IMG/VR virus record: IMGVR_UViG_3300037067_007160
Location: 32,001-96,000 of that record
DNA length: 64,000 nt
Reading direction: 5' to 3' (one strand)
DNA from: a virus
Lineage: Duplodnaviria > Caudoviricetes
Made by a program: the position numbers and the translations under genes. This document shows positions 3,425 through 63,247 of this stretch, piece after piece. Each line of letters opens with the position of its first letter. The first letter of the stretch is position 1. The notes under the pieces were generated by a model. It made no database searches and was not told the origin of the DNA. It worked only from the letters and a program-made list of their open reading frames with translations.

Positions 3425-6400
3425 TATAACGGAAGCCCCCTCACAGCCAGGTCCGACAGTCGCCGGACTATTCGGACGTCTGGCTGCATTCACTATTGCC
3501 GCAGGAGCCACAACAACCCTCCTTAGAAAAGGCTCCAGGATGGCGGCCAAGTACATCACATCAAAGATACCAGCAATAACAAAGTTGGGTGGTAAAGAAG
3601 CTACTGGTAGTCTAGAAGGAATGGCCTCCCAATTTATTCAAAAGACATTTCCTTCCATAGGAAATACAACTCTTTCCCGTGACATTCAGAGTGGAAATCG
3701 AGCCTATCTAAAGTGGGCTGCCTCGTGGAATAGGCAGGATAGAATCTTTAAGGAAGTTAAGTACCTTGAAGAAGGGGCTAGACATGCTGTTGATACAATG
3801 GAAGGAATGTCCAAGGCTACAGACTTCCATTTCAATCGTATGCGGATGCAAACTGCTGACTTCTTCGCTCGTCCAGGTCTTGGGCAAAGAGCAACAGGCC
3901 TCGCCTATCAGTTAACAAAGAAGTCTCTTGCTGGTAATGCTGGAGCCTATGTTGCAGATCAGGCGATGAACATCTTTAGTGAACCAGGTGAAAGAACTGG
4001 TCCAGCTTGGTACAATCCTGTCGGTCATGCCATTAACTTCGCAAAGTTCACTGCACAGAACCTACCATATGGTCTTATGTTTAGTGGCGGTCTTGGTTAT
4101 GCAGCCAAGATGGGTGCCGAAGCTGGTATTGGCAGTCTTAAGTTTCTCACTCATGATGTAATTGGAAAGGCAAATACACAGAGGGCCTTGGCACGTACTG
4201 CCGCTGGAGCTGACTGGATCTTCAAAGGTCTAGCTGGTCTCCACACTGCAGCAAGACAATCAATGATACGATCCCAGGCGGTCCTTCCACAAGATGTAAT
4301 GTCACTTCAGTTCTTCAAAAAGGCGATAAATCCAACTACCTGGGTTGATTTTGCACGAGAAGGAATGGCAGGATGGAAGAAGGGACTTGGACTTGCTAAG
4401 AAAGGGGGAAGTACAGACCTCCAGTTTGATGCTGAGATAAAAAATCTCATCACACGTTCTGCTCATATAAATGAACCACAAGGAAGAGAGACATTCCTTC
4501 GTGATTTCTACACAAGGACCCAGAAAAATAGACAAAGTGCATTCGAATACATCTTTGGTCTTGAGAAGAAGGTTAATTTTGAGTCGGAACTCTCAAGATT
4601 AGCCAACCAATCACTATCAAAGCTAAAACTACCAGGTGGAAACCAAGAAAGACAGGCAGCTTCTGATGCTTTCATGCGTGGATGGAGAGATACATCACAT
4701 CTTCTTGGTAGGATGGGTGTGCAAGTACAACCTGGTGTATATAAGGGTGTTGGAAATGGTGTAATTGATATTAGACCTATTCAACCTCGCCGCATTTTGA
4801 ATAAAGTGGCCGATGTAATGAATATGGCCAGCTTTAGGATACCCGGTATTAATTCTCGCATCAATGTATTTGAAATGTTCATGATTCCAAACCTTATTAA
4901 GAAGACAGCATATGAGGAATGGACTGATGGTGCTGTCTTTCTTGGAACAAATAGGACAACTTCACAGAGAATTGGCCGAAGTAGACTCCTTTCTAGTAAT
5001 AATCCAGATGCAGGAGCACTTATTGAGAATGGTTGGTATGCACCGCAAGGTGGTATTGGTGTATTTGCAGGTGGTGGATTCTACCACTATCAAGATGGTA
5101 GTATAAGACGACTACATACACCAAGAGTAACATATAAGACATTCGCAAAGGGTAGTTGGGGACTTATGGCTGATACAATGGCCTGGCTTGGTGGTAGATA
5201 TCCACAACCACTAAAAGAAACGGAGACTGGTAACAGACCATTTGGTAAGAGAGTTATGGAGGCCCTTGACCTTGACATGACGAACAAGGAAGGTGTCTTC
5301 CGTAGAATTGGATCACATGTAAGAAAGTATGTTTGGTCTCCAGGAAATCCACATCCTAACTTCATATATGATAATATTGCTAATTTTGAACGTAGTGGAG
5401 ACCTAGCATCTGGGCAAGGTTTTGTAAGAGGAATAAAACATCTTGTAGATGATGCAGTTGGTGTATTCTCAAGCGTTAGAACGAAGAGATTTACTGATGC
5501 GATCCTTGGTGGTTCGGCTACAAATCCTAATAACCTTGATGATTTTAGGTATGTTGCTGATCGTGCGCGGGAAGCCCTATCAGAAAGTAATCTACATCCA
5601 TATGTAAGAGATCTTGCTTCATCATGGAACATAAGGAAGATAGTAGATAGGGCAGGAATGGTAGATGATTATAATTCCATCCGTAGGATCATGCTTGAAC
5701 CTGCGGCAGGTGGTAGGAAGAACTATGATCAGATGATAGACTTCCTCTCCATAGATGCATTATCCAAGAAGGATAGTGCTGGAGAGGTAATGACGTATAC
5801 AAATGATCTAGTGAATTCTCTTCAGAGGAAGGGTGAAATAGGAGAATTAGGGGCAGCATCCCTTAGAGTTATATCCTATGGACTCTCAAAGCAACAACAG
5901 AGTACCTTCTTTAAGAATTACCTATCACAGAGAGGAGGAACAATACGTGGCGAGAATCTTCAGGAACTAACTAGATTCCTTAAGACAAACTCAGTTGAGA
6001 GAGATATCAAAACAGTAGCGGGAAAGATATACAAGAATCCTCTTAAGAACTTTATAGACTTAGATGATGCCCCATACAAGTCTGGTATGATATCAAATGA
6101 GTCAAAGATACAAAACCTTAAAGAGGCCCCATTTGTTGCCATTCCATGGACCTCTTCTGGTAGGATGTTATCGAAGGAACTCGCTGCCATAGGTCTATCT
6201 GAGGAAAATGGAGATCCAAGGCCAAAGAGAGCACAAGGTGATATTCTTACTGGGAAAAATATACTTTGGGCTACTGTTGTTCGTAGAATGAGTAACGTTC
6301 TTCAACCATTTGATCTTGGTCTAAATCCTGCTAAGTATAATGGTGGTGGAATATGGAATAAGATAGGTGGACCTGGCACACAGATGTTTATAGAGGGTCT

Positions 6401-51762: not shown

Positions 51763-51819
51763 AACTAGCAAAGATAGCCACCTCCACGTGGTGCTAGTTG
51801 GATAACGCTAAGAGCTATC
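51763..51819 (+). ncRNA. minimal HDV-like (theta-type) self-cleaving ribozyme
   Basis: P1 AACTAGC/GCTAGTT, P2 GATAGC/GCTATC, P3 ACC/GGT, L3 TCCACGT, P1.1 CC/GG, J4/2 GCTAA, no P4. Confidence 0.85.
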
Positions 51820-51847
51820 ACACAGGACGAAGGTCCAGGAGGATACA

Positions 51848-52294
51848 ATGGGAAATAATTCAAATTCCAAGAAAGATAGACTATTGGGAATACCACACGG
51901 AACTGCTAATGGACAGTTACGAAAAATGTTGGTCTTTGACATGGCTAAACGTCTTGGATTACTAGACTGCTATAGATGTAAAGAACCTATTCTTAAGATA
52001 AGAGATTTTTCTATAGAACATAAAATACCATGGCAGTCATCTGAAGAACCAAAAGTAGCATTCTTTGACTTAGAAAACATTGCTTTCTCACACTTAAGTT
52101 GCAATAGTGGTGCGGGCAGTGGAAGTGGAAGAACCATTATATATCCTGAAGGGCAGAAGTGGTGTGGTATATGTAAATCGTTCAAATCACTCACAGAGTT
52201 TCCTGCCTGTGCAAAACGAGATAGAAGTAGAAACTGTAAAGAATGTCATAGCAACTTAATGGCAAAATGGAGAGAAAGAACGGGAAGACACTAA
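51848..52294 (+). CDS. HNH homing endonuclease (paralog of 56434-56838)
   Basis: GTA..LRK..CYRC..DFSIEHKIPW..NIAFSHLSCN; RBS AGGAGG. Confidence 0.8.
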   Translation: MGNNSNSKKDRLLGIPHGTANGQLRKMLVFDMAKRLGLLDCYRCKEPILKIRDFSIEHKIPWQSSEEPKVAFFDLENIAFSHLSCNSGAGSGSGRTIIYPEGQKWCGICKSFKSLTEFPACAKRDRSRNCKECHSNLMAKWRERTGRH

Positions 52295-53777: not shown

Positions 53778-53780
53778 TAT

Positions 53781-54217
53781 GGGCCTGAATTAGGTTTGAC
53801 GGGGCTCACCGAGTGAAAGCGGCAAGCAGGGCCGGCACAACGTCCCTTGAAAAACTTGTGCAAAGCCTAAATGGCAAAGTAAAAGAAGAGTCCAGCCTGC
53901 TCTCTCAGGCTATGGCGATTATTGACGCAGCGTTCGAAAGAGCGCCGGAGTTCGTTCTCGCCTAACCCGCAAGGGTTGTCTCGATCCTAACTAGATTCGT
54001 TCACCTTGTAAGGGATCGGGTAACACTAGGTGAATGGCGGTCTCTATCAGCGCCTTATCTGGTAGATGGTGGAGGAGCCTAGAAGATTTACCAAATGATT
54101 TGGTAAATCTTAGTTCGCTCCCTGTAGTAAACCAAGCCATTGGTTAATTGGCTAAGCTTGTAGATGCGATCATAAAGGAGTTTCGGACGCGGGCTGCGAT
54201 GCCCGCCAGGTCCACCA
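53781..54217 (+). ncRNA. ssrA: tmRNA
   Basis: GGGCCTG/CAGGTCC-ACCA with G3:U70, GG..GAC D-loop region, tag ORF 53873-53965 GKVKEESSLLSQAMAIIDAAFERAPEFVLA*. Confidence 0.93.
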
Positions 54218-54224
54218 ATATAAG

Positions 54225-54298
54225 GCCGGTTTCGTATAAAGGAATTATACCTCACTCGTAATGAGGAGATCCTGGATCGTTACCAGGAACCGGCTCCA
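54225..54298 (+). tRNA. tRNA-Thr(CGT)
   Basis: Cloverleaf, CCTCA-CT CGT AA-TGAGG, CCA. Confidence 0.9.
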
Positions 54299-54370
54299 GT
54301 GTTGTAGGGAATCCGTGGATCCTCTCGCATAGAGCGAGTGCTGGTAAGACCGGCGGTGAAACCACGGGCT

Positions 54371-54448
54371 GCTCATGTGGCGCAATTGGCAGACGCATCC
54401 GGCTTAGAACCGGAAATCCTGCAGGTTCGACTCCTGTCATGAGCACCA
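54371..54448 (+). tRNA. tRNA-Leu(TAG), short variable loop
   Basis: TCCGG-CT TAG AA-CCGGA, CCA. Confidence 0.9.
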
Positions 54449-54464
54449 GATTTGAGGAGGTTAT

Positions 54465-54560
54465 ATGGATATTGAAGAGTTCGTTAGGTCACAAGTTGAC
54501 CTACCAGAAGACTTTAAGAAATTACTTGAGGAGAACTTCTGGAATCTGATTCTTGAATGA
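54465..54560 (+). CDS. small acidic protein (31 aa)
   Basis: GAGGAGG RBS; MDIEEFVRSQVDLPEDFKKLLEENFWNLILE. Confidence 0.55.
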   Translation: MDIEEFVRSQVDLPEDFKKLLEENFWNLILE

Positions 54561-54564
54561 TTTT

Positions 54565-54641
54565 GCCTCATTGGTGTAGCGGCTTGCATGCTTCCCTGTC
54601 AAGGAAGAGGCTGGCGGGTTCGACTCCCGCATGGGGCGCCA
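54565..54641 (+). tRNA. tRNA-Asp(GTC)
   Basis: CTTCC-CT GTC AA-GGAAG, GCCA. Confidence 0.92.
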
Positions 54642-54651
54642 GATAGTAATT

Positions 54652-54737
54652 GGGCTTGTGGTGGAATGGCAGACACGTGCGCTTGAGGTGCGCATGGCCG
54701 CAAGGTCGTGGAGGTTCGACTCCTCTCAAGCCCACCA
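54652..54737 (+). tRNA. tRNA-Leu(GAG)
   Basis: TGCGC-TT GAG GT-GCGCA, long variable arm, CCA. Confidence 0.93.
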
Positions 54738-54738
54738 T

Positions 54739-54826
54739 GGAGAGTTGGGTGAGAGGCTTATACCAGAGGTTTGCTAAACCTCCGAGCCGCAAGGCTCCAC
54801 AGGTTCGAATCCTGTACTCTCCACCA
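54739..54826 (+). tRNA. tRNA-Ser(GCT)
   Basis: GAGGT-TT GCT AA-ACCTC, long variable arm, CCA. Confidence 0.92.
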
Positions 54827-54832
54827 GATTTT

Positions 54833-54910
54833 GCGCCTGTCGTACAAATGGAAAGTACACTCGGCCTTTAACCGAGACTAGTGTGGGATCATACCCCACC
54901 AGGCGCACCA
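54833..54910 (+). tRNA. tRNA-Lys(TTT)
   Basis: CTCGG-CC TTT AA-CCGAG (C33), atypical T-loop, CCA. Confidence 0.85.
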
Positions 54911-54926
54911 GATTTATGGGAGAAAT

Positions 54927-55241
54927 ATGGATAAAAGAACATATAAAGATAGAAGAGAATATCTCATAAAAGCAGTAAAGAGAAGAAGACGAGAATTAAG
55001 AAAACAAGCAGTGAATTATGCTGGAGGAAAGTGCATTTTATGCAATTATAATAAATGCTTACATGCACTAGAATTTCATCATAAAGATCCAACACAGAAA
55101 GATTTTGGAATATCAAATGGTAATTGTAATAGTTGGAATAGAATGAGGAATGAAATTGATAAATGTATTCTAGTCTGTGCAAATTGTCATAGAGAAATAC
55201 ATGAGAAATTGGCGTCTACCCATCAAGGTGACGGGTCCTGA
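54927..55241 (+). CDS. tRNA-associated HNH endonuclease
   Basis: GGKCILC..LEFHH.DP..EIDKCILVCANCHREIH; stop lies inside tRNA-Asn. Confidence 0.85.
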   Translation: MDKRTYKDRREYLIKAVKRRRRELRKQAVNYAGGKCILCNYNKCLHALEFHHKDPTQKDFGISNGNCNSWNRMRNEIDKCILVCANCHREIHEKLASTHQGDGS

Positions 55242-55287
55242 CTGTTAATCAGGCACAAGGGTGGTTCGATCCCACCGACGCCAGCCA
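55210..55287 (+). tRNA. tRNA-Asn(GTT)
   Basis: CCTGA-CT GTT AA-TCAGG, GCCA. Confidence 0.9.
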
Positions 55288-55305
55288 AATTTAGGAGATA
55301 TATAT

Positions 55306-55740
55306 ATGCATCTAACATACACAAAAGCACAATTAGCATCACTTAAAGTTCAAATGTGGGCTAATCAATTAGGATATGTCGTTTCAATACCAACTGTTGA
55401 ATCTAGATATGATATTCTTGTTGATGTTGATGGAAAAATATTTCGTTGTCAAGTTAAGTATGCTGGAAGAAAGCTTACAAGTGGGGCAACAGAGTTGGAT
55501 CTTCGTAAAGAGACAAGAAATAATGGGAAAAAAAGATTATATACGAAAGATGAGATAGATGTTATTCTTGTATATGTTCCTGAAGAAGACAAGGTTCTTT
55601 GGATTGATCATTCTAAATTTCATAATAGAAAAAGTCTAACAATTAGACATATTGAGAATACAAAATGTAAACAAGATTCAATATTTGTTAACGATTATAT
55701 ATGGGTCCAGAGCTCGGTTGGTAGAGCAGACGCCTCTTAA
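55306..55740 (+). CDS. PD-(D/E)XK homing endonuclease (I-Ssp6803I-like)
   Basis: GYVVSIP..RYDILVD..RCQVK..YTKDEID; RBS AGGAG; stop lies in tRNA-Lys anticodon loop. Confidence 0.8.
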   Translation: MHLTYTKAQLASLKVQMWANQLGYVVSIPTVESRYDILVDVDGKIFRCQVKYAGRKLTSGATELDLRKETRNNGKKRLYTKDEIDVILVYVPEEDKVLWIDHSKFHNRKSLTIRHIENTKCKQDSIFVNDYIWVQSSVGRADAS

Positions 55741-55778
55741 GCGTAAGGTCGTGGGTTCGATTCCCACTGGTCCCACCA
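55703..55778 (+). tRNA. tRNA-Lys(CTT)
   Basis: ACGC-CT CTT AA-GCGT, CCA. Confidence 0.9.
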
Positions 55779-55783
55779 ATTTG

Positions 55784-55813
55784 TTGTGGGTCCAACTCCC
55801 ACTCGACGCACCA
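55784..55813 (+). pseudogene. orphan tRNA 3' half (T arm, acceptor strand, CCA)
   Basis: GTGGG-TCCAACT-CCCAC TCGACGC ACCA with no matching 5' half nearby. Confidence 0.75.
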
Positions 55814-55818
55814 GATTT

Positions 55819-55894
55819 GGCCTTATAGTGAAATTGAATATCACATCTCCGTCCTAAGGAGAAGTTTTCGGTTTGAGTCCGAATAAGGCCGCCA
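55819..55894 (+). tRNA. tRNA-Arg(CCT)
   Basis: TCTCC-GT CCT AA-GGAGA, GCCA. Confidence 0.88.
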
Positions 55895-55909
55895 GATATA
55901 GGAGTCTTC

Positions 55910-56278
55910 ATGAACAAGATACCACTAGTCTCAGTAACCAAAGATGACTTGGAAATACAGACGTTTAGATGTGGAGGAAAAGGTGGCCAGCATCAGAATA
56001 AGACAGAAAGTGGAGTAAGAATTATTCATCCTCCATCTGGAGTAACAGTAGAGTCAAGAGAGGAACGGTCACAGGCACAGAACAAGGCTATTGCATTTAA
56101 GAGACTTACTACTAATAAGAAGTTTCTATTATGGTTAAAGATGGAATCGGCTAGGAAGATGGGCATCCTTGAAGATATTAATAGGGCAGTTGATAGGATG
56201 ATGGATCCAAAGAATATAAAGACCGAAGTTAAAGAAGATGAGAAATGGGTAGAGAAGGAATTAGCGGGTGTGGTGTAA
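55910..56278 (+). CDS. class I release factor-like peptidyl-tRNA hydrolase (GGQ; ArfB/PrfH-like)
   Basis: FRCGGKGGQHQNKTESGVRIIH.PSG..ERSQAQNK..AFKRL. Confidence 0.9.
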   Translation: MNKIPLVSVTKDDLEIQTFRCGGKGGQHQNKTESGVRIIHPPSGVTVESREERSQAQNKAIAFKRLTTNKKFLLWLKMESARKMGILEDINRAVDRMMDPKNIKTEVKEDEKWVEKELAGVV

Positions 56279-56337
56279 TGGTAGCATGAGACCCTTCCAA
56301 GGTCCAGGTACGAGTTCGAGTCTCGTCATCCGCTCCA
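56264..56337 (+). tRNA. tRNA-Gly(TCC)
   Basis: GACC-CT TCC AA-GGTC, TCCA. Confidence 0.92.
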
Positions 56338-56342
56338 GTTTT

Positions 56343-56414
56343 GACGGTGTAGCCTAATGGCTAGGCAACGGATTGCAAACCCGTTTTATGCTGGTTCGAT
56401 TCCAGCTGCCGTCT
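56343..56414 (+). tRNA. tRNA-Cys(GCA), CCA not encoded
   Basis: ACGGA-TT GCA AA-CCCGT, U73; acceptor GACGGTG/TGCCGTC. Confidence 0.88.
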
Positions 56415-56433
56415 CATTTTAGGGGTATTATAA

Positions 56434-56838
56434 TTGTTAAATAATAATAAGAAGAATATACAACTCGAAATGAAATATGGAACAGCTTGTAATAAACTTA
56501 GAAAACTAATACTATTCACATTAGTTAAAGAAACAAAGAGAAATATATGTTATCAATGTAAAAAAGAAATAACAAGTATCGATGATTTCACAATAGAACA
56601 TAAGATTCCTTGGTTAGATAGTTTGGAACCAAAGAAATTGTTCTTTAGTATTGATAATATTGGATTTTCTCACTATAAATGTAATATACGAGTTGCAAGA
56701 AAGATAAACAAGAAATATGCAACAAGAAATCAACGAGTAAGAGAATCTAGTAAAAGAATAAGAGATAGAATAAGGAAAACTAATCCAGAATTACTTAGAC
56801 AGATTAGAAGAGAACAATATAGAAGGACAGGAAATTAA
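56434..56838 (+). CDS. HNH homing endonuclease inserted at tRNA-Cys 3' end
   Basis: GTACNKLRK..CYQC..DFTIEHKIPW..NIGFSHYKCN; very AT-rich; start uncertain. Confidence 0.8.
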   Translation: MLNNNKKNIQLEMKYGTACNKLRKLILFTLVKETKRNICYQCKKEITSIDDFTIEHKIPWLDSLEPKKLFFSIDNIGFSHYKCNIRVARKINKKYATRNQRVRESSKRIRDRIRKTNPELLRQIRREQYRRTGN

Positions 56839-56839
56839 T

Positions 56840-56850
56840 CACCGTCTCCA
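56840..56850 (+). pseudogene. displaced original 3' end of tRNA-Cys
   Basis: CACCGTC-TCCA is the perfect complement of GACGGTG plus U73-CCA. Confidence 0.75.
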
Positions 56851-56851
56851 T

Positions 56852-56945
56852 GGAAGAGCTGACCGAAGGCTGGCGCCGGTAGCTGTCTCGAAAACAGTCA
56901 GTCCAATGATTGGACCTGTGGGATCGTTCCCCACCTCTTCCGCCA
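56852..56945 (+). tRNA. tRNA-Ser(CGA), enlarged D region
   Basis: GCTGT-CT CGA AA-ACAGT, long variable arm, GCCA. Confidence 0.85.
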
Positions 56946-56955
56946 GATTTTAGAT

Positions 56956-57031
56956 GGACCTTTGGTGTAGGTGGTGTGCACGTCTGTCTGAAGCACAGAA
57001 GGAATCCGTTCGACTCGGATAGGGTCCACCA
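56956..57031 (+). tRNA. tRNA-Phe(GAA)
   Basis: TCTGT-CT GAA GC-ACAGA, CCA. Confidence 0.92.
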
Positions 57032-57037
57032 GAATAT

Positions 57038-57136
57038 GCGCCCGTTGACTAACGGTGAAGTCTCCCGCCTTATAAGCGGGCAAGTCAGGTCCTAGATTGG
57101 GGCCTCATCCAGGTTCGAATCCTGGCGGGCGTACCA
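57038..57136 (+). tRNA. tRNA-Ile(TAT) with long variable arm
   Basis: CCCGC-CT TAT AA-GCGGG; ~28-nt variable region containing an 8-bp hairpin; ACCA. Confidence 0.85.
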
Positions 57137-57144
57137 AGTTTAGT

Positions 57145-57157
57145 TGTTCTTTGACAA
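57145..57157 (+). promoter_or_regulatory. second boxA-like element
   Basis: TGTTCTTTGACAA, same context as before tmRNA. Confidence 0.6.
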
Positions 57158-57160
57158 TAT

Positions 57161-57235
57161 GGGCCTGTGGTGTAATTGCGAGCATTGATCCCCTGCAAGG
57201 ATTAGGCGAGGGTTGGAATCCCTCCAGGTCCACCA
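57161..57235 (+). tRNA. tRNA-Ala(TGC)
   Basis: G3:U70; GATCC-CC TGC AA-GGATT (C33), CCA. Confidence 0.9.
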
Positions 57236-57239
57236 ATTT

Positions 57240-57314
57240 ACCCCTGTGGTGAAACGAATATCATTTTGCGCTTCGAACGCAAAGTTGCGGGTTTGAATCC
57301 TGTCAGGGGTGCCA
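57240..57314 (+). tRNA. tRNA-Arg(TCG)
   Basis: TTGCG-CT TCG AA-CGCAA, GCCA. Confidence 0.9.
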
Positions 57315-57315
57315 T

Positions 57316-57390
57316 GGGCCTATAGTGTAATGGATAGCACAAGACTCTACGAAAGTCTAAGTGATGGTTCAAGTCCATCTAGGCCCGCCA
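57316..57390 (+). tRNA. tRNA-Arg(ACG)
   Basis: AGACT-CT ACG AA-AGTCT, GCCA. Confidence 0.92.
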
Positions 57391-57398
57391 AATTTTAT

Positions 57399-57473
57399 CT
57401 AGCTGTAGCGTAATTGGTAGCGTCCACCGTTTGGGGCGGTGTGGTGAGAGTTCAAGTCTCTCCAGCTAGACCA
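57399..57473 (+). tRNA. tRNA-Pro(TGG)
   Basis: C1-G72; CACCG-TT TGG GG-CGGTG, CCA. Confidence 0.92.
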
Positions 57474-57490
57474 GTTTATGGGAGGAAGAA

Positions 57491-57682
57491 ATGAATAGGG
57501 GTAAAGTTGCTACAATTATAATTAAAGAAAAGAATGGGAGAAAATTACAGTTTGATGTATCAGGTTACTCATATCGTTTCTCTAGGAAGAAAGTTCCAGT
57601 ATTTGGAGTGACAGAGTTAGATCATATTATTATTGGTCCAGGAAAACTAACTATTTCAGCAAGATTACCTGCACCAAAATAA
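57491..57682 (+). CDS. hypothetical protein
   Basis: RBS GGAGG; fills inter-tRNA gap. Confidence 0.6.
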   Translation: MNRGKVATIIIKEKNGRKLQFDVSGYSYRFSRKKVPVFGVTELDHIIIGPGKLTISARLPAPK

Positions 57683-57745
57683 GATTTATAGATGTAGCAC
57701 TTTTGTAAGAAAAATGTAGACGTTTTCCTTACAAAAATGTAGAAT

Positions 57746-57821
57746 GCTAATGTAGCACAATTGGCTGTGCACTTTCTTGGTAAGAAAGAGGATGTGGGTT
57801 CGAATCCCATCATTAGCTCCA
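57746..57821 (+). tRNA. tRNA-Thr(GGT)
   Basis: CTTTC-TT GGT AA-GAAAG, CCA. Confidence 0.92.
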
Positions 57822-57826
57822 GATTT

Positions 57827-57901
57827 GCCGATGTAGCTCAATGGTAGAGCAGTCGCTTTGTAAGCGAAAGGTTGGAGGTTCAAGTCCTCTCTTCGGCTCC
57901 A
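57827..57901 (+). tRNA. tRNA-Thr(TGT)
   Basis: TCGC-TT TGT AA-GCGA, CCA. Confidence 0.92.
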
Positions 57902-57906
57902 GATTT

Positions 57907-58098
57907 ATGAAGATCATAGAGACTATAAAAAGGTTCTGTATTAGACATCCAAAGTTGGCCCGTGTAGGTTGGACCTGGAGTCTACCAACTTTCAGTAAGA
58001 AGAATGAACCAGTAGAACATGAGGAAAGAAAGGTAGTAGCCCATTATTGTTGGTGTGGTCATTGTCATTGGGATCCACCTACTTGTTGTCAGAAGTAG
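57907..58098 (+). CDS. small Cys/His-rich hypothetical protein
   Basis: Exactly fills gap between tRNAs; CWCGHCH..CC; no clear RBS. Confidence 0.4.
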   Translation: MKIIETIKRFCIRHPKLARVGWTWSLPTFSKKNEPVEHEERKVVAHYCWCGHCHWDPPTCCQK

Positions 58099-58102
58099 AT
58101 TT

Positions 58103-58189
58103 GCCGCGTTGGCAGAGTGGTCTATCGCAGCTGACTGTAAATCAGCCGGACTATGTCCTTCGGTGGTTCGAATCCACCACGTGGCACCA
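58103..58189 (+). tRNA. tRNA-Tyr(GTA)
   Basis: GCTGA-CT GTA AA-TCAGC, long variable arm, CCA. Confidence 0.93.
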
Positions 58190-58226
58190 TATTTGGTTCG
58201 CGAAGCCAAGCTAGAGCTTAAGATAT

Positions 58227-58315
58227 AATTTGGCCATAACCACAAATCCTGGTGGTATTAGGCAAGTAAGCGTTGGTCCAGGAATCCAACGGACTATAAG
58301 TCCTGTAGCCAAATT
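58227..58315 (+). ncRNA. unidentified multibranch RNA with kissing loops
   Basis: Closing stem AATTTGGC/GCCAAATT, three hairpins, complementary loops TCCTG(G)/CCAGGA. Confidence 0.5.
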
Positions 58316-58389
58316 GCGGGTGTAGTATAAAGGTAGTACGACACGTTGCCAACGTGTAGGCGCCGGATCGTTACCGGTCACCCGCTCCA
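58316..58389 (+). tRNA. tRNA-Gly(GCC)
   Basis: ACACG-TT GCC AA-CGTGT, TCCA. Confidence 0.92.
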
Positions 58390-58397
58390 AGTTTATC

Positions 58398-58471
58398 GGG
58401 GTCGTGATGCAACTGGCAGACATCGAAAGCTCAAACCTTTCGTCCTGTGGGTTCGAGTCCCACTGACCCTA
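58398..58471 (+). tRNA. tRNA-Leu(CAA), short variable loop, no encoded CCA
   Basis: GAAAG-CT CAA AC-CTTTC. Confidence 0.87.
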
Positions 58472-58472
58472 C

Positions 58473-58500
58473 GGTCCTGTAGCTCAAGTGACAGAGACAA
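58473..58500 (+). pseudogene. 5' half of split tRNA (partner at 59074-59121)
   Basis: GGTCCTG-TAGCTCAAG.. pairs with CAGGACT-ACCA about 600 nt downstream. Confidence 0.8.
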
Positions 58501-58557
58501 ATGTTACTATTGACATATAGTTCTGTTTAAGATATAATCTTGGTAGGAGGTCAGATC

Positions 58558-59010
58558 ATGAATCCACCAAGATATTTACATCTGAAAGAACAAGTGATAC
58601 ATCTTCGTAAGCAAGGATTTGGTTATAGGTCAATTTCAAACAAGCTTAATAATACCATTCCATGGAGTTCTGTAAGAAGACTAGTAATTGGAATGCGTAG
58701 TAATCCAAGACTAGCTTATCTAATGGCGACTGAATACTCTCAAAGGAGACCAAAGGAATGGAATGATATACGAACAATGAGAGTTCGTCGTTTGTATCTT
58801 ATTCAAGAACGTGGTCATAAATGTGAAAGCTGTAATTTAAGTTTCTGGAAAAATCATACTATTCCACTAGAACTTGAGCATAAGGATGGATGTAGAACTA
58901 ATAATAGTAAATCTAATTTAGAGTTATTATGTCCTAATTGCCATGTTTTTACTCCTTATTATAAAGGAAAGAATACTTCATCTTTTCGAAGTAGGGCGAG
59001 TGTGGTGTAA
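58558..59010 (+). CDS. HNH endonuclease with N-terminal HTH-like region
   Basis: RGHKCESC..IPLELEHKDG..NN..SNLELLCPNCH; RBS AGGAGG; stop inside tRNA-Leu. Confidence 0.88.
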   Translation: MNPPRYLHLKEQVIHLRKQGFGYRSISNKLNNTIPWSSVRRLVIGMRSNPRLAYLMATEYSQRRPKEWNDIRTMRVRRLYLIQERGHKCESCNLSFWKNHTIPLELEHKDGCRTNNSKSNLELLCPNCHVFTPYYKGKNTSSFRSRASVV

Positions 59011-59072
59011 CTGGCAAACACTCTGATCTTAAAAATCAGATCTTGTGAGTTCGAATCTCATCACTCGCACCA
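58996..59072 (+). tRNA. tRNA-Leu(TAA), short variable loop (cassette cargo)
   Basis: CTGAT-CT TAA AA-ATCAG, CCA. Confidence 0.9.
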
Positions 59073-59073
59073 A

Positions 59074-59121
59074 TTTAATATTAGCGAACTAGTGTCGGTT
59101 CGAGTCCGACCAGGACTACCA
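59074..59121 (+). pseudogene. 3' half of split tRNA
   Basis: GTCGG-TTCGAGT-CCGAC CAGGACT ACCA. Confidence 0.8.
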
Positions 59122-59138
59122 TATTTATGGGAGGATGT

Positions 59139-59273
59139 ATGAAGAAAGACACATTAAGATGCCCATATTGTAAGGGTGATATGAGGCATTCGAAACCGGA
59201 TCAGAACGGAAACGTAATTTGGAATTGTGACTATTGTAAAGCAACATTAGCTGATAAAATATCCACCAAGTAA
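59139..59273 (+). CDS. small zinc-ribbon protein (44 aa)
   Basis: CPYC..WNCDYC; RBS GGAGGA. Confidence 0.6.
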   Translation: MKKDTLRCPYCKGDMRHSKPDQNGNVIWNCDYCKATLADKISTK

Positions 59274-59276
59274 AAT

Positions 59277-59531
59277 ATGGCAGCGATACTAGGCTGGATC
59301 TCTACCATCATCTTCTCAGTCTGTATCCTACCACAGATCTGGAAGACTTGGAAGAGTAAGAGGGCTGATGATATCAGTATTGTCTCATGGCTCATGTTCT
59401 TTACTGGTAACGTAACCGCCCTAATATATGCTATAATGATAGTCCAATGGCCGCTGATCATTAAGTACGTTTTCGCACTTGCTGCATCTTTTCTATTGAC
59501 AGTATTATGTTTATTGTATAAAAGGAGGTAG
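59277..59531 (+). CDS. SemiSWEET / PQ-loop family transporter
   Basis: 3 TM helices, LPQIWKTWKSKRADDIS. Confidence 0.85.
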   Translation: MAAILGWISTIIFSVCILPQIWKTWKSKRADDISIVSWLMFFTGNVTALIYAIMIVQWPLIIKYVFALAASFLLTVLCLLYKRR

Positions 59532-59532
59532 C

Positions 59533-59757
59533 ATGCTCATGAAAGCGAAAGTAAAAGAATGGTTCCTTGGAAAGGCACTGAAGAAGGTTGCATCACAGGT
59601 TGCCATATTCGCGGTCGCCATAGTAGCGGCCGTCAACGCCAAGAACCTTGGAGTAAATATTAACATTGATCCTGATGTGCTGGCTGGATCCGTCTTCGCT
59701 GGTCTTCAGCTATTGCGCAACTTCCTCAAGACAAAGTATAATGTAGACTGGCTTTAA
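59533..59757 (+). CDS. small membrane protein
   Basis: Two hydrophobic segments; RBS AGGAGG. Confidence 0.6.
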   Translation: MLMKAKVKEWFLGKALKKVASQVAIFAVAIVAAVNAKNLGVNINIDPDVLAGSVFAGLQLLRNFLKTKYNVDWL

Positions 59758-59767
59758 CATTCTCAAT

Positions 59768-59841
59768 GGCTCCGCAGCTCGAAGGTCGAGCATCCGGCCT
59801 ACATCCGGAAGGGGCTGGTTCAATTCCAGCCGGGGTCACCA
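59768..59841 (+). tRNA. tRNA-Val(TAC)
   Basis: TCCGG-CC TAC AT-CCGGA (C33), CCA. Confidence 0.88.
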
Positions 59842-59846
59842 ACTTT

Positions 59847-59884
59847 GCGCTCAAAGCTCATATGGCTGAGCATATGTCGATAAC
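59847..59884 (+). pseudogene. 5' half of split tRNA-Ile(GAT)
   Basis: GCGCTCA, D arm GCTC/GAGC, ends TC GAT AA C. Confidence 0.85.
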
Positions 59885-59912
59885 TGTGATATAATTTAAC
59901 TAGGAGGATATC

Positions 59913-60320
59913 ATGGATAAGACATGTGTTCTTTGTTGGAATAAAGTAAAGAAGTATAGATCTGATATATGTGGATCATGTATGGTTTTAATACGGAGAC
60001 TTCGTCTAAAACTTGCGTGTATAAAGTTACTTCATGGAAAATGTTTCAAATGCGGAATGATCGCAACATTGAAAAATCTAGGAGCATTTCAGTTTCATCA
60101 TAAAGATCCAAGTGAGAAGAAGTTCCAGTTATCATTTGGTACATACTCTTGGGATAAAATAAAAGAAGAAGCAAGAAAATGTGAACTTTGGTGTGCTAAT
60201 TGTCATTCTATTAATCATGCAACAACATACACAGAAGAAAAGATTAATAGAGCTATACGTTTTTGTGGAACTGAAGATATACATAATCTTGTAGCAGAAT
60301 GGAAAATTATTGGCTCGTAG
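59913..60320 (+). CDS. tRNA-associated HNH endonuclease
   Basis: GKCFKCG..FQFHHKDP..EARKCELWCANCH; stop inside tRNA-Ile. Confidence 0.87.
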   Translation: MDKTCVLCWNKVKKYRSDICGSCMVLIRRLRLKLACIKLLHGKCFKCGMIATLKNLGAFQFHHKDPSEKKFQLSFGTYSWDKIKEEARKCELWCANCHSINHATTYTEEKINRAIRFCGTEDIHNLVAEWKIIGS

Positions 60321-60384
60321 CTTAATGGTCAAGCCATCGCTCGATAAGCGATAGATGTGGGTTCGATTCCCAACGGGCCAACCA
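60311..60384 (+). tRNA. tRNA-Ile(GAT) (cassette cargo)
   Basis: ATCGC-TC GAT AA-GCGAT (C33), ACCA. Confidence 0.87.
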
Positions 60385-60388
60385 ATAT

Positions 60389-60431
60389 GATAACCGGGAG
60401 ATAGCAGGTTCGAATCCTGCTGGGCGCACCA
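60389..60431 (+). pseudogene. 3' half of split tRNA-Ile(GAT)
   Basis: GAT AA CCGGG..GCAGG-TTCGAAT-CCTGC TGGGCGC ACCA pairs with GCGCTCA. Confidence 0.87.
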
Positions 60432-60518
60432 AATACGGAGGACGCATAATGGCGAAGAAGAAACCTCGTGGTGGCTGTAAGTAGATAGAAGACTCCCCTC
60501 AACTTGGGGGAGTTACTT

Positions 60519-60591
60519 TGCGGAGTCATTCAATGGTAGGATGTCGCTCTCTGAAAGCGATAACGTTGGTTCAACTCCAGCCTCCGCAGCC
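60519..60591 (+). tRNA. tRNA-Gln(CTG)
   Basis: TCGCT-CT CTG AA-AGCGA; abuts tRNA-Ser. Confidence 0.9.
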
Positions 60592-60682
60592 GGAAGATTG
60601 GCCGAGTGGTTTAAGGCACTCGTCTTGAAAACGAGAGGACCTGATGAAGGTTCCACTGGTTCGAATCCAGTATCTTCCGCCA
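60592..60682 (+). tRNA. tRNA-Ser(TGA)
   Basis: CTCGT-CT TGA AA-ACGAG, long variable arm, GCCA. Confidence 0.93.
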
Positions 60683-60687
60683 ATTTT

Positions 60688-60762
60688 GGCCTCATCGTCT
60701 AATGGCTAGGATTCCTCGGTCTCAACGAGGAGATACGGGTCCGAATCCCGTTGAGGCTGCCA
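60688..60762 (+). tRNA. tRNA-Glu(CTC)
   Basis: CCTCG-GT CTC AA-CGAGG, GCCA. Confidence 0.88.
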
Positions 60763-60765
60763 TAT

Positions 60766-60804
60766 GCTCTATTCGTCTAGTGGTCTAGGATCTCAGACCT
60801 TCAA
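60766..60804 (+). pseudogene. 5' half of split tRNA-Glu(TTC)
   Basis: GCTCTAT-TCGTCTAGTGGTCTAGGA..CC TTC AA, then AT-rich insert. Confidence 0.85.
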
Positions 60805-60838
60805 ATAAATAATAGTTTGAAAGTGATATAATAGTAAC

Positions 60839-61279
60839 ATGAAAAAATGCACGAAGTGTCTACAGGAAAAAGAAGATGTTGAATTTAGTATAAAACAGAA
60901 ATTGCAACGTCATAGTTGGTGTAAAGAATGTCATAAAATATATCACAAAGAACACTATAGGGCAAATATAGAAATATATAAGAAAAAGTTAATGGAACGA
61001 ACAAGAAGATTGCGAAAGATCGCTAGGCATCTTATTATAGAATATCTTAAGACGCATCCTTGCATTGATTGTGGAATAAATGATCCCACTGTTCTAGATT
61101 TTGATCATATTAGAGGAAAGAAAAATAAGGATTTATCAACAATGATTCATAATGGTTACAATACAGAAACGATAATAGCCGAAATTGCTAAGTGCGAAAT
61201 TAGATGTGCAAATTGTCATAGACGAAAGACAATGCGTCAAAGTAAACACTGGAAAATGACATCATCGTCTAATTGGTAG
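60839..61279 (+). CDS. tRNA-associated HNH endonuclease
   Basis: CTKC..CKEC; HPCIDCG..VLDFDH..EIAKCEIRCANCHRRKT; stop inside tRNA-Glu. Confidence 0.88.
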   Translation: MKKCTKCLQEKEDVEFSIKQKLQRHSWCKECHKIYHKEHYRANIEIYKKKLMERTRRLRKIARHLIIEYLKTHPCIDCGINDPTVLDFDHIRGKKNKDLSTMIHNGYNTETIIAEIAKCEIRCANCHRRKTMRQSKHWKMTSSSNW

Positions 61280-61329
61280 GATAGTTCTCTTTCAAGGAAC
61301 AGATACCAGTTCAAATCTGGTTGGTGTCG
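61258..61329 (+). tRNA. tRNA-Glu(TTC) (cassette cargo), CCA not directly encoded
   Basis: GACATCA/TGGTGTC, GTTCT-CT TTC AA-GGAAC. Confidence 0.87.
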
Positions 61330-61346
61330 CTCCATTTTCTATAAAA

Positions 61347-61382
61347 CAGAAGATGTTGGTTCGAATCCCGTACAGAGCACCA
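61347..61382 (+). pseudogene. decayed 3' half of split tRNA-Glu
   Basis: GG-TTCGAAT-CC..ACAGAGC ACCA pairs 6/7 with GCTCTAT. Confidence 0.8.
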
Positions 61383-61387
61383 GATTT

Positions 61388-61407
61388 GCCCCAGTCGTTC
61401 AACGGAT
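61388..61407 (+). pseudogene. orphan tRNA 5' fragment (Arg-like)
   Basis: GCCCCAG-TCGTTCAACGGAT at the usual spacing after the previous CCA; cut off in the D-loop by an antisense HNH. Confidence 0.55.
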
Positions 61408-61409
61408 GG

Positions 61410-61781
61410 TTAATGAATAGTTGCATTACTACATAATCTATCATTAGTATGACGTATACGGTGACAATTTGAACAAAGCAGGACGCACTTATCAAGTTCT
61501 TTTACTACATTATCCCAAGTATGAAGTCTCATTTTTACCCATTCTAATTCTTTTGTGTTGGCATCGAGGTGATGAAAATCGTAGACTTCTGGTTGATAGG
61601 TTTCTTTACAATCATAACATTTATCACCAAGATAAACAATTGCTTTTTTCTTACGAGATACCCATCGTGTCTGACAGTATCTATTAAAACAGTCTTTACA
61701 GTATGATTGAAGCTGTGTTTTTGTTTTCTTATAAAAACACGATTCATCTTTTTCAACTTTACATTGTGGACATATTTTCAT
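61410..61781 (-). CDS. tRNA-associated HNH endonuclease (antisense)
   Basis: AAGGAG RBS; CPQC..CKDC; LGDKCYDC..YDFHH..ELDKCVLLCSNCHRIRH. Confidence 0.87.
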   Translation of the reverse strand: MKICPQCKVEKDESCFYKKTKTQLQSYCKDCFNRYCQTRWVSRKKKAIVYLGDKCYDCKETYQPEVYDFHHLDANTKELEWVKMRLHTWDNVVKELDKCVLLCSNCHRIRHTNDRLCSNATIH

Positions 61782-61793
61782 ATAATGCTCCTT

Positions 61794-61873
61794 GAGCCAG
61801 TATCTCCTCGGTCTTCTAAACCGATGAAAGAGTAATTGGACACATGTGGGTTCGACTCCCATCTGGCTCGCCA
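61794..61873 (+). tRNA. non-canonical tRNA-Arg(TCT) lacking a D arm
   Basis: GAGCCAG/CTGGCTC-GCCA, TCGGT-CT TCT AA-ACCGA, normal T arm; only 7 nt where the D arm should be. Confidence 0.7.
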
Positions 61874-61931
61874 ATATTATATCTTAGAAACATTTGTTCT
61901 AAACTATAAGACATTAGTCTGGAGGAATGCC

Positions 61932-62111
61932 ATGGAAGAGTTCTTCACGAAGAATATCGTCAATGGAAAGAATCCACTCTACATCGTCTCTACCGCAAAG
62001 GTTCGGCCCCATAAGGGGGAGTACGTAAGACTTGATGGTGCTATTACCAAAATTAAGACAGTACTTCCCATCTCCAAAGAGGAGGTTGGACTCTATATAG
62101 AAAGGAAGTAG
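61932..62111 (+). CDS. hypothetical protein
   Basis: RBS GGAGG before ATG 61932. Confidence 0.55.
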   Translation: MEEFFTKNIVNGKNPLYIVSTAKVRPHKGEYVRLDGAITKIKTVLPISKEEVGLYIERK

Positions 62112-62116
62112 ATTCC

Positions 62117-62701
62117 GTGATAACACAACTTAATACTAAAGTTCTTGTCCTAAACCGCTCATGGATTCCGATAGGATTTTGCGCTGTCCGCGAGGCCTTC
62201 AAGTATATTGCTGAGGATATCGCGGACATAATGGACTCTGACCTTAATACCTATGACTACAAGACATGGTATGAGCTTGAGGTTGAAGAGGATGAGGAGT
62301 CTGTCGGCACAGTCAATAAGAGGATAAAGGTTCCTAGAATAGTAAGGCTAAAGGACTTCAACAAAGTACCAAATACAGTTCTTCGTTTCAATAGGAAGAA
62401 CCTCTATCTACGTGATAGGTATGTCTGCCAGTATTGCGCCAAGAAGTTTCCAGCTGGCACTCTTAGTATGGACCATGTCATACCTAAGTCGCGTGGCGGC
62501 CAAACTAGCTGGACAAATATTGTCACTTCTTGTATAATATGTAATACAAGAAAGGCCGATAGGACGCCAGTGGAAGCAAAGATGAAAGTAATAAAGGCAC
62601 CCTACGCCCCAAGGCATCTTGATATTGATGTCCTTCATATTGAAGGTAAGAGGTATAAGGAGTGGGAGATGTTCCTTAAGCCAAAGGAACATATATGCTG
62701 A
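62117..62701 (+). CDS. McrA-like HNH endonuclease
   Basis: VLVLN..VPRIVRL..RDRYVCQYC..DHVIPKSRGG..WTNIVTSC..CN.RK..RTP. Confidence 0.92.
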   Translation: MITQLNTKVLVLNRSWIPIGFCAVREAFKYIAEDIADIMDSDLNTYDYKTWYELEVEEDEESVGTVNKRIKVPRIVRLKDFNKVPNTVLRFNRKNLYLRDRYVCQYCAKKFPAGTLSMDHVIPKSRGGQTSWTNIVTSCIICNTRKADRTPVEAKMKVIKAPYAPRHLDIDVLHIEGKRYKEWEMFLKPKEHIC

Positions 62702-63009
62702 TACGCTACAAGGATCAGGATTCTCAAGACTGGGAGAATGTCTCAGTAAAGAATATTCATGTCACAATAGATCTTGAGGATGTTATCTTTGGTGATATTA
62801 GGATGTCTCCTACTACTGAGCTATCCTCACTTCTTACGTCAGGGGAGAAGCTGGACATTGAGTTCTCAAGAGCTGCAGATGATGACTTTGATGTTGTCAT
62901 CTTATCAGGGATCGTTATGACTGGAGAGAGTTTTGGTTCTGGTGAAGGCTTTCAAGAACCACTAACTAGTTATCACTTCAGAGCTGATAGTCTGCAAGTT
63001 CACGATTAA
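62695..63009 (+). CDS. hypothetical acidic protein
   Basis: Coupled ORF with AAGGA RBS. Confidence 0.6.
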   Translation: MLIRYKDQDSQDWENVSVKNIHVTIDLEDVIFGDIRMSPTTELSSLLTSGEKLDIEFSRAADDDFDVVILSGIVMTGESFGSGEGFQEPLTSYHFRADSLQVHD

Positions 63010-63013
63010 TTAT

Positions 63014-63087
63014 TGGCCTGTCGTCCAATGCTAGGACCTTCCGTTTTGAGCGGAAAGATGAAGGTTGGAGTCCTTCCAGGCTAACCA
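63014..63087 (+). tRNA. tRNA-Gln(TTG)
   Basis: TTCCG-TT TTG AG-CGGAA, CCA. Confidence 0.88.
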
Positions 63088-63088
63088 C

Positions 63089-63163
63089 GGGGATATCGGT
63101 TAATTGGTAAACCACTGGTCTCCAAAACCAGCACTCTAGGTTCGAGTCCTAGTATCCCTGCCA
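63089..63163 (+). tRNA. tRNA-Trp(CCA)
   Basis: CTGGT-CT CCA AA-ACCAG, GCCA. Confidence 0.92.
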
Positions 63164-63171
63164 AATTTAAT

Positions 63172-63247
63172 GGTAGGTGAAGGCCGATGGACGGCCGCAC
63201 GGCTGTGGCCCGTGCCCTAGCCGGTTCGATTCCGGTCATCTACCCCA
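63172..63247 (+). tRNA. tRNA-His(GTG)
   Basis: G-1:C73, CACGG-CT GTG GC-CCGTG, CCA. Confidence 0.92.

Follow-up and report, generated by a model that had tools for sequence, protein, structure and literature searches.

Homing endonucleases are usually said to remain harmless to the genomes that carry them because they reside in introns or inteins, or because they are seated beside an immune allele. How nuclease genes can occupy the middle of tRNA genes is the question raised by the tRNA gene array of a tailed phage (Duplodnaviria; Caudoviricetes) in IMG/VR record IMGVR_UViG_3300037067_007160. A stretch of 64,000 nucleotides of this phage, hereafter the window, was analysed, comprising bases 32001-96000 of one 130,355-base contig and including genes for a baseplate wedge protein and a ribonucleotide reductase. 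The array (54225-63247) contains thirty-three tRNAs predicted by ARAGORN and one additional tRNA predicted by Rfam (61794-61870), and nearly all of the open reading frames (ORFs) within it encode nucleases. Three of these, of the HNH type, are each followed directly by a complete tRNA gene, with both together lying between the halves of another tRNA gene, while two comparable units with PD-(D/E)XK nucleases occur in the window and in a sister phage, respectively. These units are here termed cassettes, the complete tRNA their cargo and the interrupted tRNA gene the resident. We consider it probable that the cassettes are free-standing homing nuclease genes, each joined to a complete tRNA gene, which home into the resident gene with the same anticodon.

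The topic bears on both homing endonucleases and phage genome evolution, as such cassettes would represent a third way in which homing nucleases stay harmless in phages, namely by breaking a gene of an essential type while bringing along a full spare copy. If this holds true, it would explain the nuclease genes and tRNA fragments that fill phage tRNA arrays and the exchange of isoacceptors between arrays. It would also provide natural nucleases with specificity for single tRNA genes, and the cassettes could serve as a small, naturally occurring model of a "cleave and rescue" gene drive.

The sequences used for comparison were a 71.7-kb metagenome contig from NCBI (L064), an ENA sequence (L065), a JGI contig (L159) and Logan contigs, with X2-X5 denoting four runs (three of landfill, one of wastewater) that belong to three studies. 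L064 shares 97-99 % identity with the window on the basis of BLAST and is derived from a sister phage. Close relatives of the phage were found neither in the phage collection, searched at the DNA level, nor in IMG/VR, queried with the third HNH protein of the array (HNH-3). Homologue searches with the phosphatase adjoining the cassettes yielded only relatives with 30 % identity or less, and those with an 84-aa neighbour protein yielded no matches.

Architecture of the HNH cassettes

Outside of the called tRNAs, an orphan T arm followed by an acceptor strand and ACCA occurs exactly three times on the plus strand of the array (59094, 60404 and 61355), in all three cases directly behind a complete tRNA gene, which itself lies directly behind an HNH gene. 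The orphan 3' acceptor strands pair with the 7-mers at 58473, 59847 and 60766 in 7/7, 7/7 and 6/7 positions, respectively (G-U allowed). Each of these 7-mers starts 1-5 nt past the tRNA before it and leads into D-arm sequence. The chance of at least six of seven pairs at a fixed place, with G-U allowed, is approximately 0.013, and three such cases are thus far beyond chance expectation. The order of tRNA 5' half, HNH gene, complete tRNA and 3' half, seen three times in an initial annotation made from the letters alone, was borne out by ARAGORN, Rfam, PHROGs and the orphan scan. Each cassette has a nuclease gene as its single ORF, and no integrase was found. All of the features described below for the three cassettes lie on the plus strand.

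In cassette 1, the 5' remnant of the resident, a short tRNA (58473..58509), retains an intact acceptor strand and D arm, its first seven nucleotides pairing 7/7 with 59111-59117, while its anticodon arm is degenerate. It is followed by a promoter-like site (58510..58538) with a 12/12 match to the sigma-70 consensus (TTGACA-17-TATAAT), the HNH-1 gene (58558..59010; 150 aa; phrog_14736, E 2e-22), a cargo tRNA-Leu(TAA) of 77 nt with a short variable loop (58996..59072; ARAGORN; Rfam 62.5 bits) and the 3' remnant of the resident (59073..59121), which has a loop-like start, the perfect T arm at 59094, the acceptor strand and ACCA. Cassette 2 is seated in a tRNA-Ile(GAT) gene, of which the 5' remnant (59847..59884) pairs 7/7 through its acceptor with 60421-60427 and retains GAT in register at 59877-59884. 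The motif TGATATAAT (59887..59895) precedes the HNH-2 gene (59913..60320; 135 aa; phrog_2255, E 7e-17), and behind this lie a cargo tRNA-Ile(GAT) with C33 (60311..60384; ARAGORN; Rfam 54.2 bits) and the 3' remnant of the resident (60387..60431), which extends from the anticodon loop, likewise with GAT in register, through the orphan T arm at 60404 to ACCA. Cassette 3 interrupts a tRNA-Glu(TTC) gene, whose 5' half (60766..60804; tRNA positions 1-38) matches the initial 39 nt of the intact gene in L064 and L159 without a difference. It comprises the HNH-3 gene (60839..61279; 146 aa; phrog_2255, E 2e-31), preceded by TGATATAAT at 60824, and a cargo tRNA-Glu(TTC) with U33 and no encoded CCA (61258..61330; ARAGORN; Rfam 59.4 bits), and is followed by the 3' half of the resident (61346..61382).

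The initial annotation had reported that each HNH stop codon falls within the cargo tRNA, as is indeed the case, at 15, 10 and 22 nt into the tRNA in cassettes 1, 2 and 3, respectively. It had likewise placed a promoter in front of each nuclease gene, which agrees with the full sigma-70 match before HNH-1 and with TGATATAAT before HNH-2 and HNH-3. This motif occurs nine times in the window, where 1.9 copies are expected, with all copies on the plus strand and mostly just upstream of genes (sites include 1352, 15836, 40618, 50920, 59887 and 60824), and judged by this distribution it is probably the extended -10 promoter of the phage. The outer halves had been described as decaying, a description that holds for the part beside the insertion, where the damage is concentrated. 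It does not hold evenly along the halves, since the distal acceptor, D and T arms are intact and, in cassettes 1 and 2, perfect, with both 3' halves ending in ACCA.

Upstream of cassette 1, between tRNA-Tyr and tRNA-Gly(GCC), a second -10 region of the HNH-1 type stands ahead of 82 nt of strongly folding sequence with CCA at the end (58218-58312). This sequence has 11 nt in common with the 5' end of the cassette 1 resident and may be a small RNA or an old remnant.

Empty and occupied alleles

The sister phage contig L064 lacks window positions 60805..61357, the 553-base insert of cassette 3, and has 12 other bases in their place. There, ARAGORN predicts an intact tRNA-Glu(TTC), which corresponds to the rejoined halves. 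An intact tRNA-Glu(TTC) is also present in L159, and the joint 60804-61358 was observed in contigs of X2, X3, X4 and X5. The TTC identity that the initial annotation had assigned to the Glu resident is confirmed by the intact genes in L064 and L159, and empty-site alleles, as the scheme put forward there implied, thus exist for Glu in both of these contigs and in contigs of four runs. X2 also contains a contig from inside HNH-3, so that both Glu alleles occur in one sample. The coexistence of empty and filled alleles in the same landfill metagenome indicates that the process is probably active now.

The flanks of the Glu site in L159, where the gene is intact, differ from those in the window at 2/1380 positions, both 230 nt away, on one side and at 0/1374 on the other. 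Six of the 12 bases to the right of the Glu insert (61346-61357), which are the first 12 nt of the resident 3' half, differ from the intact allele, followed by no differences in 711 nt (L064) and 1374 nt (L159). As a result, two pairs of the anticodon stem and one of the T stem are broken. The junction differences would fit a short tract copied from a putative donor, and the intact sequence could not be recreated from the occupied allele by precise deletion. The simplest reading is that the Glu cassette was gained recently, through recombination with a donor in which the nested unit and the decayed tract adjoining it were already present.

Polymorphism between the two phages is reciprocal. In L064, a Ser(GCT) cassette comprises a resident 5' half from 3927, a promoter-like motif, a PD-(D/E)XK nuclease gene (4019-4453), a cargo tRNA-Ser(GCT) (4415-4506) and a 3' half (4533-4579), while the corresponding site in the window is empty, with an intact tRNA-Ser(GCT) on the plus strand (54739..54826). 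Conversely, the window contains a Lys cassette at a site that is intact in L064. Its plus-strand PD-(D/E)XK nuclease gene (55306..55740; 144 aa; Pfam PF11645, 66.4 bits against a cut-off of 26.1) does not occur in L064 and is followed on the same strand by a cargo tRNA-Lys(CTT) (55703..55778; ARAGORN), with 70 % identity to the resident tRNA-Lys(CTT) of L064, and by an orphan 3' part of the resident (55783..55813). This part is identical to the last 31 nt of the intact L064 gene (4753-4828), while no 5' half is left.

For cassettes 1 and 2, gapped patterns for the intact Leu and Ile residents gave no matches in viral contigs, and no joint across either cassette was found among the joints listed. 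X5 shows zero depth inside HNH-2, with contigs too short to show a joint. The HNH-2 protein is identical on four independent contigs, L064 among them, and exact-protein look-ups returned only contigs already carrying HNH-2. When the 28-base 3' end of the Ile resident was searched against JGI metagenomes, the matches were mostly to bacterial tRNA-Arg and tRNA-Lys genes and to integrase att remnants, with L159 as the sole useful match. It follows from the predominance of bacterial tRNA-Arg and tRNA-Lys that the acceptor and T arm alone can mislead on the identity of a tRNA.

Anticodon agreement and divergence of the cargo tRNAs

The anticodon concordance of cargo and resident proposed in the initial annotation extends to all five cassettes. 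For Glu, Ser and Lys it is proven by the intact alleles. For Ile, where GAT had been noted in both halves and in the cargo, the loop remnants agree, with a GAT loop remnant on both halves and that of the 3' half standing before a canonical stem, variable loop and T arm. The resident of cassette 1 is probably a tRNA-Leu, judging by family likeness. Its acceptor, D arm, variable loop and T arm resemble those of the 74-nt tRNA-Leu(TAA) of Rhodococcus phage Trina, and the best phage matches of its 3' half are mostly annotated as tRNA-Leu. With approximately thirty anticodons in the array, agreement of the three proven cases by chance would be expected about once in 27,000.

Cargo and resident tRNAs share 57 %, 59 % and 70 % identity (57 % for Glu and 70 % for Lys) and differ in their anticodon stems. 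The five nucleases are all different, belonging to two HNH families and including two PDDEXK_5 proteins with 24 % identity to one another, while HNH-2 and HNH-3 barely align. It can therefore be concluded that the architecture arose repeatedly.

Position 33 of the anticodon loop is almost always U in tRNAs. C33 was observed in tRNA-Lys(TTT) (54833-54910), tRNA-Ala(TGC) (57161-57235), tRNA-Val(TAC) (59768-59841) and the cargo tRNA-Ile(GAT) (60311-60384), as well as in the resident tRNA-Glu(TTC) of the sister phages (L064 10854-10929), and could serve to escape anticodon nucleases. The suggestion in the initial annotation that the cargo spreads resistance to defence is not supported, in that it is the Glu resident that has the unusual C33, while the cargo tRNA-Glu(TTC) has the ordinary U33.

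Proposed homing of the cassettes and alternative explanations

The mechanism proposed here starts from a unit that has its own promoter and a nuclease stop codon within the tRNA, and that occupies the central part of a resident tRNA gene. When a phage with such a unit and a cassette-free phage infect the same cell, the nuclease would cut the resident gene that is still intact in the latter, probably in the region from the anticodon arm to the T stem, since this region differs between isoacceptor alleles and is altered in the alleles that bear a cassette. The anticodon stem in particular would be a natural place for specificity, as it differs between alleles while the anticodon must stay constant. 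Repair of the break would draw on the genome that bears the cassette, for which the two tRNA halves and the adjoining array would provide the homology, and this repair would copy the cassette in and destroy the resident gene. The phage would nevertheless lose nothing, with the cassette supplying a diverged isoacceptor that has another anticodon-stem sequence and is presumably not cut, while the outer halves would be dead remnants. Every homing event would renew the distal parts of the halves from the recipient, whereas the stretch beside the cassette would travel along and decay. The perfect distal arms and the degenerate stretch on the cassette side fit such renewal from the recipient. The cleavage site, gain rather than loss as the direction of change, the resistance of the cargo and the origin of the first nested copy are matters that we infer.

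An alternative is that the halves are passive scars, with nuclease-induced breaks and microhomology between tRNAs shuffling the array, as in the segmental amplification driven by SegB of phage T4, and with no targeted homing into the same isoacceptor. Breaks made by SegB do give rise to microhomology-mediated rearrangements (PMC13096335), arrays of other phages often contain orphan tRNA fragments in the absence of a nested cassette, and the Lys cassette retains only the 3' part of its resident. Such shuffling does not account for the agreement of anticodons in five of five cassettes, the position of all insertions in the central part of the tRNA, or the Glu polymorphism, which is a clean swap of 12 bases for 553 in an otherwise identical genome, and we consider this explanation unlikely. 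It is far less probable still that the outer halves form a working split tRNA, from whose transcript the insert of approximately 550 bases is removed in the manner of an unusual intron. The perfect acceptor, D and T arms and the ACCA ends of the halves in cassettes 1 and 2 would suit a functional molecule. However, no Intron_gpI or other Rfam intron family matched within 58000-62200 at E values up to 10, and there is almost no non-coding room in the cassettes, with only 34 and 15 non-coding bases flanking the genes of the Glu cassette. The anticodon stems are moreover unable to pair in all three HNH cassettes (with a T-stem mismatch in addition in the Glu 3' half), the Lys cassette has no 5' half, and a complete isoacceptor is present inside each cassette. 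Splicing of the outer halves is thus unlikely on account of the missing intron matches, the scant non-coding room, the stem mismatches and the lack of a Lys 5' half, which speaks for the description of a splicing-free element without an intron core in the initial annotation. That the repeated tRNA sequences of the array, in a source that is a metagenome assembly, led to chimeric joins is scarcely credible, as the same junctions recur in the NCBI assembly, the ENA contigs, the JGI contig and the Logan contigs of several studies.

Several points nevertheless weigh against homing of the cassettes into resident genes with the same anticodon. The same polymorphism would result if a cassette were lost when its genome recombined with one carrying the intact allele, and empty-site alleles of the Leu and Ile cassettes were not found. 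The Leu resident is identified only by sequence likeness, and both the site of cleavage and the resistance of the cargo are conjectural. Ordinary homologous repair leaves unexplained how a module of nuclease and tRNA first landed between the two halves. Furthermore, T arms are among the orphan tRNA parts in arrays of other phages without a nested cassette, and some remnants must therefore stem from other rearrangements. Flanking direct repeats were considered as a general signature of the cassettes and rejected, being significant only at an HNH insertion at 51763, marginal for Ile and not significant for Glu and Ser.

A broader proposition is advanced more tentatively, and we doubt it slightly more than we believe it. 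The cassettes may represent a general class of "cut and replace" homing elements of tRNA genes that evolved repeatedly, in which any small nuclease gene that is welded to a diverged isoacceptor could invade the matching tRNA gene in unrelated phages and bacteria, with the broken halves as portable homology arms. Such a class would then rank among the main forces behind the turnover and mosaic composition of tRNA arrays in phages.

Wider occurrence and neighbouring elements

For HNH-3, 621 relatives were found. Relatives with 40-52 % identity are encoded in tRNA arrays of phages of Streptomyces and Mycobacterium, as well as by metagenomic phages and on bacterial contigs. Most of those examined lie in tRNA arrays and nearly always overlap the first bases of a tRNA. 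HNH-1 shares 54-59 % identity over the HNH domain with proteins of T5-like phages, where the genes of its relatives immediately precede a short tRNA-Leu and overlap it with their stop codons. In two bacterial-looking contigs (L201 2501-3009 and L202 2501-3026), genes of the HNH-3 family, situated beside a Mur ligase or HisRS gene, end approximately 10 nt inside a tRNA for Trp(CCA) and Arg(TCG), respectively. The module of nuclease and tRNA is therefore not confined to phages.

Three further nuclease genes of the window are associated with tRNA sequences in other ways. Directly behind cassette 3, at 61386-61870, a fragment that looks like the 5' part of a tRNA-Arg, with acceptor and D arm (61386-61409), is followed by a minus-strand HNH gene (61410-61781) and by an odd gene that resembles tRNA-Arg(TCT) but lacks a D arm (61794-61870; Rfam 34.5 bits). 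Part of the latter has 85 % identity with DNA that is unannotated in Streptomyces phages and in a crAss-like phage. From its layout, this region may be a sixth cassette, in inverted orientation. A 104-aa HNH protein (phrog_2255) is encoded at 54927-55241 between tRNA-Lys(TTT) and tRNA-Asn, overlapping the latter by 32 nt. The gene does not occur in L064, where the tRNA-Asn is 100 % identical, and it is thus an insertion polymorphism in which no tRNA is replaced. The third, an HNH gene at 51848-52294 (phrog_23251; region 51763-52293), is an insertion into a tRNA-like element immediately ahead of its CCA and likewise does not occur in L064. The insertion is flanked by an imperfect direct repeat of 16-17 nt of the 3' end of the element (p < 0.002 against shuffled sequences).

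Several features of the array pertain to translation. It contains no tRNA-Met, while an RF-1-domain (ArfB-like) gene is located within the array and a phage tmRNA before it (window 55910-56278 and approximately 53780-54222; L064 1844-2279). Several nuclease ORFs end inside tRNAs, and tRNA processing could thus yield mRNAs without stop codons. A long and odd tRNA at 57038-57136 is predicted by ARAGORN as a 99-nt tRNA-Leu(TAA) with A33, while an 89-nt tRNA-Ile(TAT) is found at the same array position in L064 (5998-6086). Outside this phage, a 249-kb metagenome contig (L076 1280-1900) contains four tandem units that look like tRNAs with the 3' half placed ahead of the 5' half and that have conserved linkers. 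Their interpretation as permuted tRNAs was rejected in view of sub-threshold Rfam matches to YrlA (Y RNA-like; 39.5 and 31.7 bits).

Comparison with known systems

Free-standing homing endonucleases are known from phage tRNA clusters. The GIY-YIG enzyme SegB of T4 and the HNH enzymes F-TflI/II/IV of T5 cut the tRNA genes of phages that lack them and drive the inheritance of themselves and of the neighbouring phage tRNA genes (PMC2330249; PMC13096335). The stop codon of SegB abuts the next tRNA, and tRNA processing may limit expression of the nuclease (PMC2330249). The cassettes described here resemble these systems in that genes of homing nuclease families lie outside of any intron or intein, among tRNA genes, and are present or absent at the same site in close genomes (Glu, Ser and Lys cassettes). 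However, SegB is located between intact genes, recognises a shared T-loop motif and replaces whole stretches cleanly, whereas the cassettes lie inside one gene with the same anticodon, leave both halves and carry a full replacement tRNA.

The list of known strategies for avoiding harm given in the initial annotation left out the mobile ORFs (mORFs) of fungal mitochondria, which carry a replacement gene segment (PMC3630166). In Allomyces atp6 and in Glomus atp6, atp9, cox2 and nad3, an endonuclease gene has been inserted without an intron or intein and brings a diverged foreign copy of the part it disrupts, while the native part stays downstream as a remnant (PMC3630166). The cassettes similarly combine a nuclease with a diverged copy of the target (57-70 % identity), alongside the native halves, and the mORF layout is reproduced in a further contig (L073) by the order of tRNA-Glu(TTC), HNH gene and an orphan T loop with acceptor. 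Unlike the cassettes, mORFs encode LAGLIDADG or GIY-YIG enzymes and are found in protein genes, of which they exchange the 3' end only, frequently with an in-frame fusion. The cassettes encode HNH or PD-(D/E)XK enzymes, affect RNA genes of phages and carry a whole gene, and both halves usually remain.

Further parallels exist with elements that interrupt genes by other means. Group I introns of tRNA genes with homing endonucleases share the anticodon arm as target and the polymorphism of presence and absence, but the cassettes have no intron core, and function is kept by a spare gene rather than by splicing. Integrase-borne islands and prophages in tRNA genes also carry a tRNA copy that restores function and displace the 3' part of the tRNA to their far end, and orphan tRNA-Arg 3' halves of this type turned up among the JGI metagenome matches. 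The cassettes differ in having neither integrase nor att core, in their length of approximately 550 bases, in their whole diverged tRNA and in leaving both 5' and 3' remnants. In fractured genes with split inteins, a free-standing endonuclease gene is likewise located between two pieces of the target gene, but there the pieces are functional and are rejoined at the protein level (PMC2677866), whereas the halves around the cassettes look dead and the spare copy works. Full-text searches of the literature gave no account of a phage tRNA gene in which a nuclease and an entire replacement tRNA are nested. Inheritance of phage tRNA genes driven by nucleases and replacement by mORFs were already known, and the evidence presented here supports the addition to these of nested cassettes in phages, in which a nuclease and a whole tRNA are carried within a gene for the same anticodon.

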